64,000 nt of DNA from an uncultured SAR86 cluster bacterium. GTDB taxonomy: Bacteria; Pseudomonadota; Gammaproteobacteria; Magnimaribacterales; AG-339-G14. Of this stretch, positions 46,296 through 54,313 are shown piece after piece (positions within the stretch are counted from its first letter, which is position 1; the number at the start of each line of letters is the position of its first letter). The DNA lies in contig CABZAV010000001.1 in NCBI GenBank assembly GCA_902523885.1, positions 114,208-178,207 on the forward strand, in the 5' to 3' direction. A program made the position numbers and the translations under genes. The notes beneath the pieces are model-generated. The model searched no databases. It worked only from the letters and a program-made list of their open reading frames with translations, and was not told where the DNA came from.

Positions 46296-46508
46296 ATGTT
46301 ATCCAATTTAATTGAAGTAATATTTAACCATTTAACTAATTGGGGAGTTTTTTGGTTTGGTTTTTTGTTTTTCGGGAGTATTTTTGGTGCAATATTGACT
46401 TTAATTTTCTCTGCATATGATTCAAAAACCTTAATTCTTGCGGGTTATTTTTTAGGAGCGATTTTCGGATTGATAGCTAATTATAAGGAATGGTCATGGA
46501 TCAACTAG
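46296..46508 (+). CDS. Small hypothetical membrane protein (2 TM)
   Basis: 70-aa hydrophobic ORF filling the gap; its 3' end carries the SD (AAGGA) for the desaturase. Confidence 0.6.
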   Translation: MLSNLIEVIFNHLTNWGVFWFGFLFFGSIFGAILTLIFSAYDSKTLILAGYFLGAIFGLIANYKEWSWIN

Positions 46509-47440
46509 TAGAGCAAAAAAATTTGTTTCAAAATCATCAGGAAGAAAATTTAGATCTTTCTTTGGAAGCTGAGAAAAAAATAGCTAGGTCATTTATGGGC
46601 CGAATAGAATGGGAAATGATAGCCATTGGATTAACTCAATGCCTATTTTGGTTTGGTGTTTGGGCGATGGTCTTGAATGGTTTTATGCCTCTCTGGGCAG
46701 GATGTCTCACTTTGATAATTTCTACAACTTTTGCCTATTTGCCCTCACACGCTGGACAGCATGGCCATTTATCTGGAAACAAAAAACATTTAGATTGGTT
46801 AAATTTTTGGGTAGGTCAGATTTCTTTGATACCTCTAGCTCAATCGCATGAAATTTTAAAAATAACTCATCTAAAACATCATGCTCACACCAACGATCCA
46901 AATAATGATCCTGACTATAATCATACTCACACTAGCGGTTGGTTTAAATCGGCTTTAGCTGTGCACCTTCAAACTGGCACTAGAGACGAAAGATTAAATA
47001 ACATGATCGAAAAGTGGACGGAGACAGATCCTGAATTTAAAGCCGCAAGCGAAAGAGGAGGAATGGTTCTAGTTGGTTTTTACATATTACAGATTGTTGC
47101 TGCAATTAATTTTCCTCTAGAAACTTTGCTTCTGTGGTGGCTTCCACGAAAACTGGCTACCTCATATTTGGGCGTAATATTTTCTCATATGCCCCATAAG
47201 GGTCTTCCAGTAGGAAGACACTCTGATACTAGATTTTGGTCGAATGGAATCGTTAGATTCTTCAATCACTCAATGCAAATACATGCCATGCATCACATGT
47301 ATCCAAAAATTTGTCATCATGATGAGCCAAAAGCAATAGAAGCTTTAAGGCCTTTTATGGTTGCTAGAGGCATACCTGGAGCAGATAGAATACCAGAGAG
47401 AATTACGAACAATCCTCTTACAAAATTGAAAACAGTATAA
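46490..47440 (+). CDS. Membrane fatty-acid desaturase / CrtR-like hydroxylase
   Basis: His boxes HAGQH, HLKHH(AHTNDPNNDPD) and HAMHH; several TM helices. Confidence 0.85.
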   Translation: MVMDQLVEQKNLFQNHQEENLDLSLEAEKKIARSFMGRIEWEMIAIGLTQCLFWFGVWAMVLNGFMPLWAGCLTLIISTTFAYLPSHAGQHGHLSGNKKHLDWLNFWVGQISLIPLAQSHEILKITHLKHHAHTNDPNNDPDYNHTHTSGWFKSALAVHLQTGTRDERLNNMIEKWTETDPEFKAASERGGMVLVGFYILQIVAAINFPLETLLLWWLPRKLATSYLGVIFSHMPHKGLPVGRHSDTRFWSNGIVRFFNHSMQIHAMHHMYPKICHHDEPKAIEALRPFMVARGIPGADRIPERITNNPLTKLKTV

Positions 47441-47443
47441 AAA

Positions 47444-48700
47444 TTAACTTGAGAAACTTAATTTTGGTAGATACTTCAATAAAGTAACTAAGACAATATT
47501 GAATATCGATTGAAAGATAAACAATTGCGTTACTATCAGCTCACTATTAACTAAATTTCCAAATAAGAAAAAAATAATCACAGCTGACGATCTTAAAATT
47601 TCTGGCAAGAAGCTCAATTCGTATTTTTCCATACTCATCAAAGCTATGGTCGAAGTAATCAAGAGAGTAATTGCAAAAACACTGGTGTCTTGAAAGGATT
47701 GGCTTGCAACTGAAGCAGTAACAGCCGCCGATAAAACCATAATGAAAAATAATTGAATCCAACTATAAATTTTTACTTCAAAAGAAGTTGAAGGATTGTA
47801 AGGCTCAAAATTATCCAAGTCATTTTTATAAATAGGATAATTTGTCTTTACGTCATCTGGTCGCCAGTTTGGCCTTGAAAACCAGACTCTTATTTTGTCT
47901 TTTATAGATTTAGTTCTGGTGGAGTCCTTAATCATTTCTGCAAATATGTCCAAATTGGCTTTGAAAGGATTCCAACTGCTTAAAGGCTTTGCAGTTCCAT
48001 ATATAGGTTTTAATTCATCCAGCTCTTCTTTATAAGTACCAAAGAGCCTATCCCATAAAATGAAGACGCCTCCGTAGTTGGCATCTACATAATGTTTGTT
48101 TTGAGCATGGTGAATTCTATGATTTGAAGGAGAAACAAAGACATATTCATACCAACCAAGTTTAGGAATGTGTTCTGTATGAACCCAAAATTGATAAACA
48201 AGATTTATTCCCGCTACTGTGACAAAAACTTCCGGAGGAATTCCAACTATAAAAATGGGTAAATAAAATATCCACTTCCAAAGAAAACCTGTACTTGTTT
48301 GTCTAAGCGCCGTTGATAAATTGAATTCTTCTCCATGATGATGAACCACATGAGTTGCCCATAATACTTTTACTTCATGATGCAACCGATGCATCCAGTA
48401 GTAACAAAAATCATATAAAAAGAATGCAAATATCCAAACCCATAAAGAGGAAGCAGAAAATAATTTTAGATTGTAGTATTGAGCAACGTAGGCAAAAGCT
48501 GCTCCTTGCAGGCCCAACCCAAGTAAAGGAATGTACCTACTAATAAGACCTAGACTTATACTTGTAAAAGAATCGTTTAAGCGGTAATTATTTTTGCCTG
48601 TAACTAAACCGTATACCAACTCAATAAAAATTAGCACAAAGAAAGCGGGTACGGCTAACGTTATAATTATTGAAGAATCGAATGAGCCAACTTTTTCCAT
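47444..48700 (-). CDS. Sterol desaturase / fatty acid hydroxylase family protein, alkylglycerol monooxygenase-like
   Basis: YYWMHRLHHE, HVVHH.GEEFNLSTALRQ, YQFWVHTE, HRIHH and NYGG..ILWDRLFGT motifs, plus a C-terminal TM extension. Confidence 0.88.
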   Translation of the reverse strand: MEKVGSFDSSIIITLAVPAFFVLIFIELVYGLVTGKNNYRLNDSFTSISLGLISRYIPLLGLGLQGAAFAYVAQYYNLKLFSASSLWVWIFAFFLYDFCYYWMHRLHHEVKVLWATHVVHHHGEEFNLSTALRQTSTGFLWKWIFYLPIFIVGIPPEVFVTVAGINLVYQFWVHTEHIPKLGWYEYVFVSPSNHRIHHAQNKHYVDANYGGVFILWDRLFGTYKEELDELKPIYGTAKPLSSWNPFKANLDIFAEMIKDSTRTKSIKDKIRVWFSRPNWRPDDVKTNYPIYKNDLDNFEPYNPSTSFEVKIYSWIQLFFIMVLSAAVTASVASQSFQDTSVFAITLLITSTIALMSMEKYELSFLPEILRSSAVIIFFLFGNLVNSELIVTQLFIFQSIFNIVLVTLLKYLPKLSFSS

Positions 48701-48706
48701 GGAAGA

Positions 48707-48769
48707 ATTTTAGTTTAAATATATGAAAACACAAAAATTTATTGCTTTTGACAAAAAGTTAACTAACCT
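48707..48769. promoter_or_regulatory. Back-to-back sigma70-like promoters, both apparently leaderless
   Basis: Minus strand: TTGTGT-16-TAAAAT-6-ATG(48700). Plus strand: TTGCTT-16-TAACCT-6-ATG(48776). Confidence 0.5.
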
Positions 48770-48775
48770 TAGAAC

Positions 48776-49354
48776 ATGTCATTCACTTTGCAATTGGGCC
48801 AGAAAGCTCCAGAATTTAACCTAATTTCTACAAGCAATGAAAATGTTTCCATTACAAGCTTTGATTCTAAATTTTTAGTCATTTTTTTTACATGCAATCA
48901 TTGTCCTTATGTTACCGGATCGGATGAGGTAACTAGACAAACTGCAAATAAATTCAGAGATAAAGACGTGAGCTTTATCGCTATCAACTCAAACAGCGCA
49001 AATACATATGAAGAAGACAGCTTTGAAAATATGATTTTGAGAATGGAAGAATTTAATTTTCCTTGGGTTTATTTACATGATGCCGATCAGGAAATTGCAC
49101 TGAAATATGGAGCTCTCAAAACTCCGCACTTCTATGTTTTTAATGAACAAAGGAAATTGATCTATACCGGTAGGGGAGTGGATTCACCGTTAGATGCAAA
49201 TAAAATTAAAATCAACAATCTTGAATTAGTTCTTGATGAGCTTACTTCAAATACATTAATATCTATTCCCATCACAAACCCAATTGGGTGTAGTTTAAAA
49301 TGGGAAGGTAAGGATGCTCATTGGATGCCACCTGAGGCATGTGATCTTGTATAA
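48776..49354 (+). CDS. Thioredoxin-fold AhpC/TSA-like redoxin
   Basis: APEF, FTCNHCPYV (CxxC), INSN, TPHFYVF and IGCSLKW motifs. Confidence 0.88.
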   Translation: MSFTLQLGQKAPEFNLISTSNENVSITSFDSKFLVIFFTCNHCPYVTGSDEVTRQTANKFRDKDVSFIAINSNSANTYEEDSFENMILRMEEFNFPWVYLHDADQEIALKYGALKTPHFYVFNEQRKLIYTGRGVDSPLDANKIKINNLELVLDELTSNTLISIPITNPIGCSLKWEGKDAHWMPPEACDLV

Positions 49355-49370
49355 ATTTTAAGGAGTAGAT

Positions 49371-50069
49371 ATGACAGATTTAGCCACACTAACGAAGCAA
49401 GGAGATGTTTCAATAATTAAACTTGATGATGGAAAAGCCAATGCTTTTTCTCTGGACATGTTGGAGAGCCTCAATGCTTGTTTGGCTGAAGTACCAAGGG
49501 ACTCAGGATCTTTGATAATCACTGGGAGAGAAGGCCTTTTTTCTGCTGGATTTGATTTAAAAACTCTTGCATCCGGAGACGTGGAAGCTGCACAAAAGAT
49601 GGTTAAGCTTGGTTTCAATACACTCCTAGACTTATATTCATTTCCTAGACCTATCGTGGCTGCAATTTCTGGCCATGCCGTCGCACTTGGAATTTTTGTT
49701 GCTTGTTGTTGTGATTATAGGATTGGAATTGAAGGAAAGTTTATCTGCCAAGCCAATGAAGTTAGAAACAACATGGACATTCCTGTGCAGATTATGGAGA
49801 TAGTTAAAGATAGACTTGATAAAAAGCATTTTTATAAAGCGATATATCATGCGGAAGTTTACCCAATGCACGAAGCCATTTCTGCTGGGTACATTGACGA
49901 AATTGTGCCTCCAGCAAACTTGATGGAAAAAGCTTTAGAAAAAGCTAAAGATTTAGCAACTTTAGGCCATCCTTACTATATGAACACCAAAAATGTGTAT
50001 CAAGCCGATGTCGTTGCTAAAATTAAAGAAGGAATTGAAGGGGCGAGACCGCCAGGACAAACTGCTTAA
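49371..50069 (+). CDS. Enoyl-CoA hydratase/isomerase (crotonase) family
   Basis: DDGKANA, FSAGFDL, GHAVALG, ANEV and AGYIDE motifs; SD AGGAG upstream. Confidence 0.9.
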   Translation: MTDLATLTKQGDVSIIKLDDGKANAFSLDMLESLNACLAEVPRDSGSLIITGREGLFSAGFDLKTLASGDVEAAQKMVKLGFNTLLDLYSFPRPIVAAISGHAVALGIFVACCCDYRIGIEGKFICQANEVRNNMDIPVQIMEIVKDRLDKKHFYKAIYHAEVYPMHEAISAGYIDEIVPPANLMEKALEKAKDLATLGHPYYMNTKNVYQADVVAKIKEGIEGARPPGQTA

Positions 50070-50070
50070 A

Positions 50071-51081
50071 TTATTTTTTTTCTAAAAGATAATGGTTAAC
50101 AAACCATTCGTTACCATCATTAATTTTAAAAAATTCTTCGACGGTTAGAAAAAAAATTCGCCATCTTTGAAACCACAAATTTGCATCGTCGTAATGCTTT
50201 GCAAACATAGCTAAAGTTTCTTTTTTATTTTTATAGTGATTCGATAGCCAGTCTCTCGATGTAAGAGAATAATGTTTGCCGTTTACTTTCCAATCTTTTA
50301 TGACAGTCATATCATTGGAAAAATAATTAAAGATATCTTGTGACGGCATTATTCCTCCTAAAAAGAAGAATTTAGTCATCCAGTCAGCATCACCGGAAAT
50401 TTCATAAGGATACAAAAAATCTTTATGACAAAAAATATGAACAAATAGTTTGCCTTTTTCTGTAAGCATATTAGCTACTTTTGAAAGAAGCTTTTCGTAA
50501 TTTCTCATATGCTCAAACATTTCTATTGAAACAATTCGATCAAATTTATCTTCTAGATTTAATTCGTTTATATCTACTTTTAAAGCAGTGATATTATTTA
50601 AGCCTCTTGATATTGCTTCGGTGGTAATAAAGTCTATCTGGTCTTGAGAATTGCTAATGGAAGTAAAAGAATTTTTAGGAAACCTTTCTGCAGCAAATAA
50701 ACTAAAACTTCCCCAGCCACAGCCCAAGTCTAGAATCTTTTGACCATCACAAATTTCAGCTCTGCTGAGATAAAGCTCAAGCATTTTTTCTTCTGCTTCG
50801 ACCAAGGTTTCTTTTTGAGTTTCATATAAACAACAGGAATATTTTAAATTCTTGCCCAACACCTTAGTAAAAAATGATGGTGGAACTTCGTAATGCTGTT
50901 CGTTAGCTTCAAGAGTTTGTTCGGCTATAGATCCTTCTTTGAAAGAAGCTGTAATATTTGATTTTTCAGACAACAAGGACTTATCTTCTAATCTACTCAA
51001 GCTAAGTTTTCTTATTGCAATTCTTAATAAGAAGTCTGGAATAAAGCCTTTTTCAGCTAACCATAATCCTAATCTCATCAT
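50071..51081 (-). CDS. SAM-dependent methyltransferase, CFA/CMAS family (coclaurine-N-methyltransferase-like branch)
   Basis: ANEQHYEVP, LKYSCC, LDLGCGWGS, SIEMFEHMRNY, HIFCH and FFLGGIMPS motifs. Start at ATG 51081 (ATGA overlap). Confidence 0.88.
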   Translation of the reverse strand: MMRLGLWLAEKGFIPDFLLRIAIRKLSLSRLEDKSLLSEKSNITASFKEGSIAEQTLEANEQHYEVPPSFFTKVLGKNLKYSCCLYETQKETLVEAEEKMLELYLSRAEICDGQKILDLGCGWGSFSLFAAERFPKNSFTSISNSQDQIDFITTEAISRGLNNITALKVDINELNLEDKFDRIVSIEMFEHMRNYEKLLSKVANMLTEKGKLFVHIFCHKDFLYPYEISGDADWMTKFFFLGGIMPSQDIFNYFSNDMTVIKDWKVNGKHYSLTSRDWLSNHYKNKKETLAMFAKHYDDANLWFQRWRIFFLTVEEFFKINDGNEWFVNHYLLEKK

Positions 51082-52241
51082 TTTACTTTTAGTAAGTATT
51101 GCGAAACTTCTAATTGACCATTCAAGAAACCTCCTCTGCAGTATGCTAAATACATATCCCAAGTTCTTTTGAATTTTGCATCAAATCCCATTTCTTCTAT
51201 ATCACTCCAAGCGATCTGAAAATTTTCATACCAAGTTTCCAATGTTTTTGCATATGATTTTGCAAAATTAGTAGTTTTTATATTTTCTAAATCAAACTTT
51301 CTTGCTTCATCAACAAACAATTGATCTGATGCTAATTCTCCGCCTGGAAAAATATAAGTCTGAATAAAATCTGGCCATTTGTCATAACCTTCAAAGTAAT
51401 CTTTAGTCATTGTTATTGTTTGAATGACAGCTTTAGCATTTGGTTTGAGGACATTTTGAATTTTTTGAAAATATGAATTCCAATACTCAGAACCAACTGC
51501 CTCAAACATTTCGATAGAGACGACAGCGTCAAATTCCCCCTCAAGCAATCTGTAATCAATTAATTCAATATCCGGAACTGTTTCTAAATTTTCGATCCTA
51601 TCCTTAGCAAATTTGAATTGACTTGGCGAAATAGTTATACCTTTAACTAAATAGCCTTCCTTTGATGCATGTTCTAAAAAACCTCCCCAGCCACAACCTA
51701 TTTCTAAGATACGAGATCCAACCGGAAGATCCAAGGTATCTAGAATTAATTGGTATTTAGCTTTTTGGGCTTCTTCAATTGTTTCATTTTGTTCTTTATA
51801 AAAGGCAGAAGAGTAGGTCATGGTTTTATCAAGCCACATAGAATAAAAATCATTTCCTAAGTCATAATGTGCTTCAATATTTTTTTTGCTTCCTGAAATT
51901 GAATTTTTATTTAGTCGGTGTTGAATTTTTGTGAAGATTCTCCCTAAAACTTTTCCGTCAACAATTGTACTTATTGAAGAATAGTTTTTAGTGAGAAATT
52001 CCATTAAAAATATTAAGTTTGAAGTTGACCAATAATTCTTGATATAACCTTCGGTGAAACCAAGACTGCCTCTGGTGAATAAAAGCCAAATACCTTTCCA
52101 AGAAGTAATAACCAAGTCTGCTTTTTCGGATCCTTCTCCAAGTTGAAGCATGGTTTTATTGGGAAAAGTGATTATTAAAAAACCAGATTCTAAATTAACA
52201 ATCCTTTTCTCAAGCCATTTTTTAAAAAATTTAGTCAACAT
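51078..52241 (-). CDS. Cyclopropane-fatty-acyl-phospholipid synthase family methyltransferase (UfaM/UfaA1-like)
   Basis: NIEAHYDLGNDFY, MTYSSA, LEIGCGWGG, SIEMFEAVG, YIFPGG and YLAYC..GF motifs. Confidence 0.92.
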   Translation of the reverse strand: MLTKFFKKWLEKRIVNLESGFLIITFPNKTMLQLGEGSEKADLVITSWKGIWLLFTRGSLGFTEGYIKNYWSTSNLIFLMEFLTKNYSSISTIVDGKVLGRIFTKIQHRLNKNSISGSKKNIEAHYDLGNDFYSMWLDKTMTYSSAFYKEQNETIEEAQKAKYQLILDTLDLPVGSRILEIGCGWGGFLEHASKEGYLVKGITISPSQFKFAKDRIENLETVPDIELIDYRLLEGEFDAVVSIEMFEAVGSEYWNSYFQKIQNVLKPNAKAVIQTITMTKDYFEGYDKWPDFIQTYIFPGGELASDQLFVDEARKFDLENIKTTNFAKSYAKTLETWYENFQIAWSDIEEMGFDAKFKRTWDMYLAYCRGGFLNGQLEVSQYLLKVK

Positions 52242-52962
52242 AACCCTTGCCGTTATGAGCGAACACCTTAACTTTTTTCATCCAAAGGAATAATGCTTGA
52301 AGGTGAATCCTAGCTAAAACTAGAGAAGAATTAATAAAAATTGAAAAGAAAATAAATAATTTATTTTGCCATGAAAAGTTTATTCTTTGCCCGGACAAAT
52401 TAGATAAAATCTCAAGTTCTCCTTTAGGATTGTATTCATTGATCTTTATATCTAATGGATCACCAGAAATTTTAAATTGATAAAGTCCTTGTTTATCGGC
52501 AAAGGGCGATACATACATTTTTTTTTGAATTGGTATCCATTTTTTTCCATCAAGAATATTTAGTGAGTCATGGACGTAATAAATTTGCCTTTCATGAAAG
52601 GTATTTGTTACTTCAGCTACCATCATTAAATCATTTTCATTTTTTTTTAAAAACCAAAAACATACAGGGTTGAAAGTTTTGAGAAAATGAAAGTCAGGAG
52701 TCTTTAAAAGATTTATTTTTAGATTTTTCTTCGAGATATTATTTTCTTTAATGTATTTAAGAATATTATTTAAAATCTTTTTTGAATCGTCATTTTTTAA
52801 AAAAGAAAAATTAAAGAAAGTAGATTCAATATGATCGACCTTGTCTTCTTGAAAATCATAAATATTTTCTAGAAAGATACTTCGATAGGGATAGTCAAAA
52901 CCATGTTTTTTTGATTTGACTCTTTTATGAGAAACAATTCCTTTAAAAAAATATTTTTTCAT
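52231..52962 (-). CDS. DUF1365 family protein (UfaO-like)
   Basis: G.VSHKR...H.F.Y, FNPVCFW, AEVTNTF.ERQ.Y, K.MYVSPF and IHLQAL.LW.K motifs. Confidence 0.88.
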   Translation of the reverse strand: MKKYFFKGIVSHKRVKSKKHGFDYPYRSIFLENIYDFQEDKVDHIESTFFNFSFLKNDDSKKILNNILKYIKENNISKKNLKINLLKTPDFHFLKTFNPVCFWFLKKNENDLMMVAEVTNTFHERQIYYVHDSLNILDGKKWIPIQKKMYVSPFADKQGLYQFKISGDPLDIKINEYNPKGELEILSNLSGQRINFSWQNKLFIFFSIFINSSLVLARIHLQALFLWMKKVKVFAHNGKGYVD

Positions 52963-54152
52963 ATATCTCTACTATTAATGAGCTCGCAGATTGCTTGTGA
53001 AGATTTTATGCCATCTTCATGAAAACCGTAACCCAAATAAGCACCCGTAAAATAAGTATTTTTTTCAGATTGGATTTCTTTAAATTTCTTTTGACCCCTT
53101 AGAGCTTTAAAATCAAATATTGGATGTTCGTATTCCATCTCGTTAAAGATTAAATTAGGTTTAGGAAAATCTCCTAAGGTGACAAAAATATTTTTGCTAG
53201 TATTAATTTTTTGAAGATTATTCATCCAGTAAGTAACGTATTCGTAATTTTCGTCCTTGTACACATTCCAAGAACACCATTGTTTTTTATCCTTTGGCAT
53301 TAAACTTTCATCTCCATGCAAAATAGTTATATTTTTTTGATATTTGATTGAATCAATAGCATTTTTTTCTTTCTCATTTAAATCATCAATGCATTCCACT
53401 ATCTGATTTGGGTGATTTGCCATTATCAGTAAATCGAATTCATATGATTCATCTTTATTCGAAATGAATATTTTATTGTCGGATCTATTAATTTTGACTT
53501 CTGAATTAAGCCTTACATCAAAGACTTTTAAATCCAATAATTTCTCAACGTAAGTATTACTTCCTCCCAAAACCGAATACCACTGCGGACGGTCATAAAG
53601 ATTTAATAAACCATGATTATTCAAGAAATTATTCATTGATTCGGCTGGGTAGTTTCTTATCTCTTTGGAAGTGGAAGACCAAATTGCTGAAGTCATGGGA
53701 AGCAAGTAACTTTCAACAAAAAGATTAGAGAATTTAGAGGTTTTTAGCCACTTACCAATATTTTCTTTGCTTTTGAGATTTTTAGCTAAAAAATTAAATC
53801 TCACAATATCGATCAGTAGCTTTATTTTTTTTAAATTTGTTAGAAAAGAAAAATTAAAAAACTCTTTAGAATTCCAAATTAGGAATTTTGAATTTACTGA
53901 AAAAGACATCTCTGTTTGATATAAATCAATGTCAATTTCATTAAAAAATTCCATTAGATTTTTATAATTCTTATCATTAAGTACAATAAATCCTGAATCA
54001 ACCTTTATTAAGTTTTCAAGTTCTAGTTGATGAGTATGGGTATGACCACCCAATCTGTCAGAGTTTTCAAAAATAGTTACTTCGTGATTTTTGCCTAAAA
54101 AGTAAGCGGCAGACAATCCACTAATTCCCGAGCCAATAACAGCAATTCGCAT
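52959..54152 (-). CDS. FAD-dependent oxidoreductase, amine-oxidase family (UfaD-like)
   Basis: IAVIGSGISGL, RLGGHTHT, VDSGFIVLN..NY, AIWS, WCSWN, YWMNNLQ and GYGFHEDG motifs. Start at ATG 54152. Confidence 0.9.
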   Translation of the reverse strand: MRIAVIGSGISGLSAAYFLGKNHEVTIFENSDRLGGHTHTHQLELENLIKVDSGFIVLNDKNYKNLMEFFNEIDIDLYQTEMSFSVNSKFLIWNSKEFFNFSFLTNLKKIKLLIDIVRFNFLAKNLKSKENIGKWLKTSKFSNLFVESYLLPMTSAIWSSTSKEIRNYPAESMNNFLNNHGLLNLYDRPQWYSVLGGSNTYVEKLLDLKVFDVRLNSEVKINRSDNKIFISNKDESYEFDLLIMANHPNQIVECIDDLNEKEKNAIDSIKYQKNITILHGDESLMPKDKKQWCSWNVYKDENYEYVTYWMNNLQKINTSKNIFVTLGDFPKPNLIFNEMEYEHPIFDFKALRGQKKFKEIQSEKNTYFTGAYLGYGFHEDGIKSSQAICELINSRDI

Positions 54153-54237
54153 GAGACACATTTTAGGTCATTTATCTGTTTATATAAGGAATAAAAATAG
54201 AAGAGATTTATGTTTTTAATATATAATTCTTCGCCTT

Positions 54238-54313
54238 GGGGCTATAGCTCAGCTGGGAGAGCGCCTGATTTGCATTCAGGAGGTCCGCGGTTCGATCCCG
54301 CGTAGCTCCACCA
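54238..54313 (+). tRNA. tRNA-Ala (TGC)
   Basis: GGGGCTA/TAGCTCC acceptor stem with G3:U70, anticodon arm CCTGA-TTTGCAT-TCAGG, GTTCGAT, encoded CCA; TATAAT at 54222-54227. Confidence 0.97.

Follow-up and report, generated by a model that had tools for sequence, protein, structure and literature searches.

Furan fatty acids are potent membrane antioxidants that animals obtain through the diet, and to our knowledge the microbial suppliers of these lipids in the sea are poorly mapped. Here we describe a four-gene operon, predicted to direct the synthesis of methylated furan fatty acids, at positions 50071-54152 of a 64,000-nt stretch of DNA (hereafter the window) from contig CABZAV010000001.1 (GCA_902523885.1) of an uncultured SAR86 cluster bacterium. 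Among the closest described systems is that of Rhodopseudomonas palustris CGA009, in which, according to the available part of the report, the adjacent genes ufaD, ufaO and ufaM (RPA2571-2570-2569) are both required and enough to form a monomethyl furan fatty acid. There, FufM (RPA0924) is encoded by an unlinked gene, is 26% identical to UfaM and makes the dimethyl form, whereas RPA3082, which shares 38% identity with UfaM, plays no part (Lemke et al., 2020, PMC7380195). The same source describes ufaM of Rhodobacter (Cereibacter) sphaeroides as unlinked and the genes RSP1087-1089 of its ufaD-ufaO operon as dispensable (PMC7380195). In addition, three consecutive ufa genes were described in the marine Halomonas sp. 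YLGW01, whose UfaM formed 11-methyloctadec-12-enoate in Escherichia coli (PMC12089945), and furan fatty acids were reported in marine bacteria by Shirasaka in 1995 and 1997, as cited by Lemke et al. (2020, PMC7380195).

The locus in the window resembles that of R. palustris, as far as the published description allows the two to be likened, in the order of a flavoprotein, a DUF1365 protein and a methylase of the cyclopropane fatty acid (CFA) synthase family, in a second methylase that is about a quarter identical to the first, and in the predicted products, phospholipid-bound furan fatty acids with one or two methyl groups; it differs in that fufM is unlinked in R. palustris, whereas the fufM-like gene is here the fourth, overlapping one (PMC7380195). 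With R. sphaeroides the window shares the UfaD-UfaO pair of RSP1091-1087, but in that species ufaM (RSP2144) is unlinked, fufM is lacking, and the operon has extra genes and is under the control of sigmaE-ChrR, while no ChrR was found in the window genome; the extra genes seen in Rhodobacteraceae, encoding an MFS_2 transporter, a DUF3833 protein and a short-chain dehydrogenase/reductase (SDR), are missing from the window operon. Halomonas sp. YLGW01, likewise a marine gammaproteobacterium, has its ufa genes in a row, and the UfaM of this cluster made the methyl-alkene intermediate, but the species has a separate true cfa as well, and the available part of the report mentions no fufM-type gene (PMC12089945). 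What is particular to the window is the set of four overlapping genes with a fufM-type gene inside the operon, the fact that no sigmaE-ChrR pair was found in the genome, and a patchy, cassette-like distribution.

Organization of the operon and predicted pathway

The initial annotation had described an FAD oxidoreductase, a DUF1365 protein and two CFA-like methyltransferases, all overlapping, and this was borne out by the open reading frames (ORFs) and by Pfam. Four minus-strand ORFs (52959-54161, 52231-52962, 51078-52241 and 50071-51162) encode, in operon order, an UfaD-like flavoprotein, predicted to be an FAD-dependent fatty acyl desaturase of the amine-oxidase/phytoene-desaturase type (52959-54152, 397 aa); an UfaO-like DUF1365 protein, proposed as the O2-dependent enzyme forming the furan ring (52231-52962, 243 aa); a full-length UfaM-like methylase of the CFA-synthase family, predicted to use S-adenosylmethionine (SAM) and here called MT1 (51078-52241, 387 aa); and a shorter, divergent FufM-like methylase of the coclaurine-N-methyltransferase-like branch, here called MT2 (50071-51084, 337 aa). 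The ufaD-like gene starts at the ATG at 54152, which aligns with all relatives, and the ATG further upstream at 54161 is not conserved, while the true start of MT2, as read from the sequence, is the ATGATGA at 51084/51081, overlapping the MT1 stop. The overlaps amount to 4 nt (ufaD/ufaO), 11 nt (ufaO/MT1) and 4-7 nt (MT1/MT2). The source genome (1.11 Mb in 15 contigs, 88% complete) holds a single DUF1365 gene and two true CMAS genes, which are MT1 and MT2.

Gene families, gene order and tight coupling support the furan fatty acid reading that had been proposed from the sequence, and we consider it likely that the four genes are translationally coupled in a single operon that makes methylated furan fatty acids on phospholipid acyl chains already present in the membrane, the product probably being a dimethylated furan fatty acid. 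Following the published pathway, MT1 would methylate cis-vaccenate with SAM to a methyl-branched trans-alkene and not to a cyclopropane; cis-vaccenate is a plausible substrate because the genome encodes FabA (267 bits, above the curated cut-off). The UfaD-like flavoprotein would then add a second, conjugated double bond, the UfaO-like protein would insert an oxygen atom from O2 and close the furan ring, and MT2 would put a second methyl group on the ring, giving the dimethyl furan fatty acid. In a cell that bears rhodopsin and is exposed to light, such a lipid would act as a scavenger of singlet oxygen and radicals, and the rhodopsin gene found in the genome points to life in the light. We infer the substrate, the product, the mode of expression and every chemical step of the operon by analogy with the described systems.

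The flavoprotein and the DUF1365 protein

The UfaD-like protein matched the Pfam families Amino_oxidase (PF01593, E 6.2e-17) and, at its N-terminus, NAD_binding_8 (PF13450, E 2.4e-15), and shared 35% of residues, over 406 aa, with the UfaD homologue from a ufaD-ufaO operon of Rhodobacteraceae. Six of the eight residues of its motif VTYWMNNL equal those encoded by the published RSP1091 primer, and this short stretch is the one direct link to the verified UfaM, UfaD and UfaO proteins. The UfaO-like protein matched DUF1365 (PF07103, E 3.7e-40) over profile positions 2-233 of 235. Searches of the genome with Rhodobacteraceae and alphaproteobacterial UfaD homologues returned the UfaD-like protein of the window as the sole match, and those with the corresponding UfaO homologues returned only the UfaO-like protein. 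A flavoprotein of the UfaD type adjoined by a DUF1365 gene, with an overlap of 4 nt, is the arrangement of the UfaM-UfaD-UfaO pathway.

A CFA-synthase-like methylase beside an FAD oxidoreductase also resembles the make-up of the BfaA/BfaB-type systems for tuberculostearic-acid-like lipids, in which reduction by the flavoprotein converts the methylene intermediate of the methylase to a saturated 10-methyl branch. This is highly improbable for the window, where the flavoprotein is of the amine-oxidase/phytoene-desaturase type, the DUF1365 gene lies between flavoprotein and methylase as in ufa loci, and a second methylase is present that has no place in the Bfa scheme.

The first methylase

MT1 matched the Pfam family CMAS (PF02353) with an E-value of 1.1e-79 and 268 bits, and the solved structures closest to it are CFA synthases. 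It is of the same fold family and length as E. coli Cfa, with 33-34% identity, but several lines of evidence set the two apart. Against the NCBIfam model for cyclopropane fatty acyl phospholipid synthase (NF008686) MT1 scored 251 bits, under the cut-off of 400 bits. A maximum-likelihood tree of 34 CMAS-family proteins was built in which Rhodobacteraceae loci, alphaproteobacterial genomes and E. coli Cfa served as proxies, and there MT1 and its relatives from the same order formed a clade (support 100/96) with the proxy methylases encoded directly after ufaO in three alphaproteobacteria. The same clade takes in one paralogue from each of three Rhodobacteraceae genomes, including the sole CMAS gene of a genome with ufaD-ufaO, while E. 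coli Cfa and the remaining Rhodobacteraceae paralogues fall outside it.

The alignment separates the proteins in the same way. We take C139, E239, H266 and Y317 to be the bicarbonate-site residues of E. coli Cfa, and the letters of the E. coli sequence at positions 139 and 266 agree with this assignment. In MT1, E239 and Y317 are retained, and S, A and Q align with C139, H240 and H266. All methylases examined from the MT1 clade or linked to ufaO carry S or A, then A, then Q at these three positions, which in the FufM-like clade are C, H and H as in E. coli Cfa. The altered base site of MT1 would fit an enzyme that releases a methyl-alkene and does not close a cyclopropane, and the S/A-A-Q signature may serve as a sequence marker separating methyl-alkene-forming UfaM-type enzymes from cyclopropane synthases.

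Two alphaproteobacterial genomes of about 25% GC (L039 and L040) contain CFA-synthase-like genes of about 396 aa, and these group with the clade of E. coli Cfa.

The second methylase

The initial annotation had also proposed that the fourth gene encodes a FufM-type second methylase, and this was upheld indirectly by the ranking of solved structures, a separate clade, identity levels and a chain of literature statements. MT2 is a more divergent member of CMAS (E 2.1e-39, 136 bits) and scored 144 bits against the NCBIfam synthase model with its cut-off of 400. The solved structures closest to it are the plant coclaurine, pavine and tetrahydroprotoberberine N-methyltransferases (E 1.1e-66 to 2.1e-47), headed by coclaurine N-methyltransferase 6gkv (E 1.1e-66), with which MT2 gave an end-to-end alignment, and CFA synthases rank behind (best E 3.8e-26). 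The solved plant enzymes differ in that they N-methylate alkaloids, whereas the reaction proposed for the bacterial enzyme would be a C-methylation of the furan ring of a lipid.

In the tree, MT2 and its alphaproteobacterial homologues make up a clade of their own (support 100/100), which includes a protein from Rhodopseudomonas boonkerdii (name as given in the source). Pairwise identities were 24-30% between MT2-type and MT1-type proteins and 33-41% between Cfa-type and MT1-type proteins, which agrees with the values of 26% for FufM and 38% for RPA3082 against UfaM given in the available part of the R. palustris report (PMC7380195). RLKPA, the C-terminus of FufM as encoded by the published reverse primer, is the exact end of some of the alphaproteobacterial MT2 homologues. 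Besides, in the parts available of the two sources, FufM (Q6NBA4) is stated to be 37.87% identical to Arabidopsis At4g33110 (PMC10940516), and At4g33110 is tabulated as a putative coclaurine N-methyltransferase (PMC3388832). FufM may thus be placed in the branch of MT2, since MT2 resembles coclaurine N-methyltransferase, which leads by way of At4g33110 (LIME1) to FufM. MT2 therefore has the features of that branch, being a divergent CMAS protein of the coclaurine-N-methyltransferase/LIME1-like kind whose identity to MT1-type proteins (24-30%) brackets the 26% between FufM and UfaM, and there is good indirect support from sequence comparison that it is a FufM-type second methylase.

Reference sequences were sought by means of published primers (Table S1 of PMC7380195). 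The 25-mer of RSP1091 occurred in the genome collection in three Rhodobacteraceae loci other than R. sphaeroides, in which further R. sphaeroides primers had 3-10 mismatches. In these loci (among them L006:5846-11020) ufaD-ufaO is followed by genes for a 175-aa chalcone-isomerase-like protein (weak Pfam match), an MFS_2 transporter, a DUF3833 protein and an SDR; gene sizes are close to those published for RSP1091-1087, with one extra small gene, and no methylase was found in the L006 ufaD-ufaO operon. RSP1089 was considered as a second CFA-like gene and rejected, its Rhodobacteraceae counterpart being the MFS_2 transporter. The 29-mer of RPA2570 had no match in the contigs of the genome collection, and the 18-mer of RPA0924 had at least 119 chance matches in metagenome contigs, none encoding an MT2 homologue. 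Protein searches from the alphaproteobacterial and R. boonkerdii MT2 homologues found the primer-derived N-terminal tag of RPA0924 in no listed protein, and the ESM Atlas returned generic methyltransferase clusters only.

Linkage of the four genes in other lineages

Within a sample of 401 alphaproteobacterial genomes, 11 encode a strong MT2 homologue (41-45% identity). Five of these were checked; all five contain DUF1365, and in four the MT2 homologue lies 0.2-2.3 kb from ufaD-ufaO(-MT1). In a class sample of 400 genomes a FufM/MT2 homologue was found in 48, counting the window genome and two others of its order. From the 45 class loci outside the order, 19 were fetched from the top of the list as 17-kb stretches, three on short contigs or contig ends being skipped, and in 16 of the 19 a ufaD-ufaO-MT1-like trio lay within the stretch around the MT2 homologue. 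FufM-type genes thus co-occur with ufaM, ufaD and ufaO.

The usual gammaproteobacterial layout is desaturase-ufaD-ufaO-MT1-(DUF2878)-DUF1295-MT2. It shares with the window the four core genes in the same direction and order, and differs in that the operon of the window has lost the desaturase, DUF2878 and DUF1295, and MT2 directly abuts MT1. In the window genome this desaturase has no counterpart, and for DUF1295 there is just a distant homologue, encoded about 140 kb away. The desaturase gene near the operon (46490-47440) was considered as a counterpart of the operon-linked desaturase of this layout and rejected, as tblastn gave no match.

Distribution within the order

Our sample of the order comprised 151 genomes, all listed ones being 0.9-1.6 Mb in size. 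The DUF1365 gene is present in 17 of them, the window genome included, and per family, leaving out the window genome, in 7/40, 3/40, 6/40 and 0/30. The genes ufaD-ufaO-MT1-MT2 are packed in the same order in 12 of the 14 order loci fetched, across three families, at 86-97% identity to the window within the genus and 43-62% outside it, and the MT1 and MT2 subtrees show identical branching order within the order.

Two loci from different families (L193:4947-9050 and L196:4876-8979) are 76% identical in nucleotides over precisely the 4.1 kb of the operon, and their flanks are unalignable, whereas the alignment between two genera of one family is patchy, at about 66%. Since the 76% identity between families is confined to the operon, lateral movement of the cassette within the order is suggested, and the operon behaves as an optional cassette that was probably moved within the order. 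A bolder proposal, for which the chances are rather poor, is that of a natural minimal cassette, in which the four genes alone would suffice for dimethyl furan fatty acids and would spread as a unit between lineages of a very abundant ocean bacterium with a small genome, expressed from a leaderless, stress-sigma-independent promoter.

Promoter, regulation and transcription

The 76-nt gap between the operon and the divergent tRNA-Ala(UGC) gene upstream (54238-54313, plus strand, ARAGORN) contains no -35/-10 pair by consensus scan. A TAAAAT hexamer (54160-54165, minus strand), a candidate -10 element, stands 7 nt before the ATG at 54152, and no Shine-Dalgarno sequence is visible. The string CCTAAAAT, followed by 7 nt and the ATG, is kept in 6 of 6 loci from two genera while the spacer varies; the hexamer went unreported by the consensus scan because it has no -35. 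These features fit a leaderless start at 54152. The sigma70-type leaderless promoter postulated in the initial annotation is therefore sustained in part, with the conserved TAAAAT and the lack of a Shine-Dalgarno sequence in its favor and the missing -35/-10 pair against it. The position of the tRNA gene is kept in both genera of the family. In the window (54162-54313) and in five related loci (L188-L192), a conserved block by the tRNA gene reads as a TATAAT-type element on the plus strand and looks like the tRNA's own promoter, and the part near the operon varies except for CCTAAAAT.

At the other end, no terminator was found by scan after MT2. A single base separates the MT2 stop from that of a convergent gene of the enoyl-CoA hydratase family (49371-50069), with no terminator-like hairpin between them (50067-50073).

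A lack of sigmaE-ChrR control agrees with the genome content. No ChrR above the cut-off was found in the 88%-complete genome, in which a lone 151-aa cupin scored 22.9 bits, below the cut-off. The genome has three genes of the sigma-70 family, and its sole extracytoplasmic function (ECF) sigma factor (G000:C2:100191-103394, L205) is followed by an RseA-like gene and a gene for a trypsin-like protease and is of the envelope-stress type. The best reading is that the operon runs without sigmaE-ChrR, the singlet-oxygen-responsive pair of R. sphaeroides that the pathway itself does not need.

Parts of all four genes were found at 92% identity or more in contigs from RNA libraries of four metatranscriptome runs (three studies), some of which span the MT2/MT1 and MT1/ufaO junctions; these contigs give neither strand nor level, and DNA carry-over is possible, and they are thus compatible with transcription of the operon in seawater and no more. 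In single runs some operon parts lack an RNA-library contig and depth is unlike that of the neighbors, neither of which is interpretable.

Alternative products of the operon

Besides these limits of the RNA-library contigs, several observations weigh against the furan fatty acid interpretation. Orthology to UfaM, UfaD, UfaO and FufM rests on proxies, synteny and literature statements, and the bicarbonate-site positions used to read the MT1 alignment are those that we assume for E. coli Cfa. The UfaO-like protein is just 24-35% identical to its alphaproteobacterial homologues, and the operon lacks the desaturase, the DUF1295 gene and the occasional DUF2878 gene of the common gammaproteobacterial form. 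MT2 is also separable from the rest, because homologues occur with no trio nearby and trios occur that lack MT2: the trio is absent beside the MT2 homologue in three of the 19 class loci (L245, L250 and L254); a genome of the same order (G405, locus L260) has an MT2 homologue of 55% identity but lacks ufaD, ufaO and MT1 up to 8 kb from it; and two order genomes (L198 and L201) carry the trio with no MT2, only 268 of the 387 residues of MT1 being aligned in L198.

The low identity of the UfaO-like protein bears on the possibility that the operon stops short of the furan and instead supplies methyl-branched alkenes, conjugated dienes or cyclopropanes that would tune membrane fluidity. MT1 is the only full-length CFA-synthase-like gene of the genome, and the function of DUF1365 rests, in the part of the literature available, on two characterized members. 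We nevertheless judge this outcome quite unlikely, as the DUF1365 gene is intact, single-copy and kept in every locus with the operon, MT1 is without equivalents of Cfa C139 and H266 and stays under the NCBIfam Cfa cut-off, and the ufaD-ufaO-ufaM trio sufficed for furan fatty acid synthesis in the tests described in the available part of PMC7380195.

The MT2 homologues with no trio nearby bear on another possibility, namely that the first three genes yield a monomethyl furan fatty acid and that MT2, merely riding in the operon, methylates some other substrate, be it a lipid or a small molecule, perhaps as an N-methyltransferase like the plant enzymes related to it. The alkaloid-pathway N-methyltransferases are its closest solved relatives, and MT2 shares with them and with Cfa the E-H pair and the histidine. 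Yet 16 of the 19 class loci and four of the five alphaproteobacteria have the MT2 homologue in linkage with ufaD-ufaO-MT1, the window and 12 of the 14 order loci have an MT2 start that overlaps the MT1 stop, the MT1 and MT2 trees agree within the order, and FufM, which in the available part of the literature is the sole characterized bacterial enzyme reported to be similar to the MT2 branch, methylates a furan fatty acid. On this balance a separate role for MT2 appears unlikely, and a dimethyl furan fatty acid formed by all four gene products remains the reading that we prefer.

Ecological and practical implications

This kind of pathway is known and widespread, and the gain from the present locus is ecological and practical, not conceptual, because the biochemistry is already published. 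The description of the locus as an unrecognized marine source of these lipids was overstated, in view of the marine bacteria of Shirasaka (1995, 1997; as cited in PMC7380195), the Halomonas UfaM described in the available part of PMC12089945, and the FufM-like gene in 48 of 400 class genomes. A literature search of limited coverage found no paper on the furan fatty acid pathway in the small-genome ocean lineages to which the window belongs. The whole predicted pathway, in the smallest form known, is thereby present in some lineages of an ocean bacterium that is abundant, uncultured and equipped with rhodopsin, and the patchy distribution (17/151 genomes of the order) makes the operon a candidate ecotype marker for light or oxidative stress. 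The operon also offers a compact four-gene construct for testing the pathway, and it hints that the desaturase, DUF1295, DUF2878, SDR and DUF3833 genes of other loci are dispensable. If the minimal-cassette proposal were true, the carrier lineages would add a substantial bacterial source, as yet uncounted, of the furan fatty acids accumulating up marine food webs.

Flanking genes

Beside the operon, the region 46490-50069 encodes a protein of the fatty acid desaturase family (316 aa), a 418-aa protein of the FA_hydroxylase family, a Redoxin/AhpC-type protein and a crotonase-family protein. Each of these four neighbors is kept within the genus, and the hydroxylase and crotonase genes flank the operon in the second genus.

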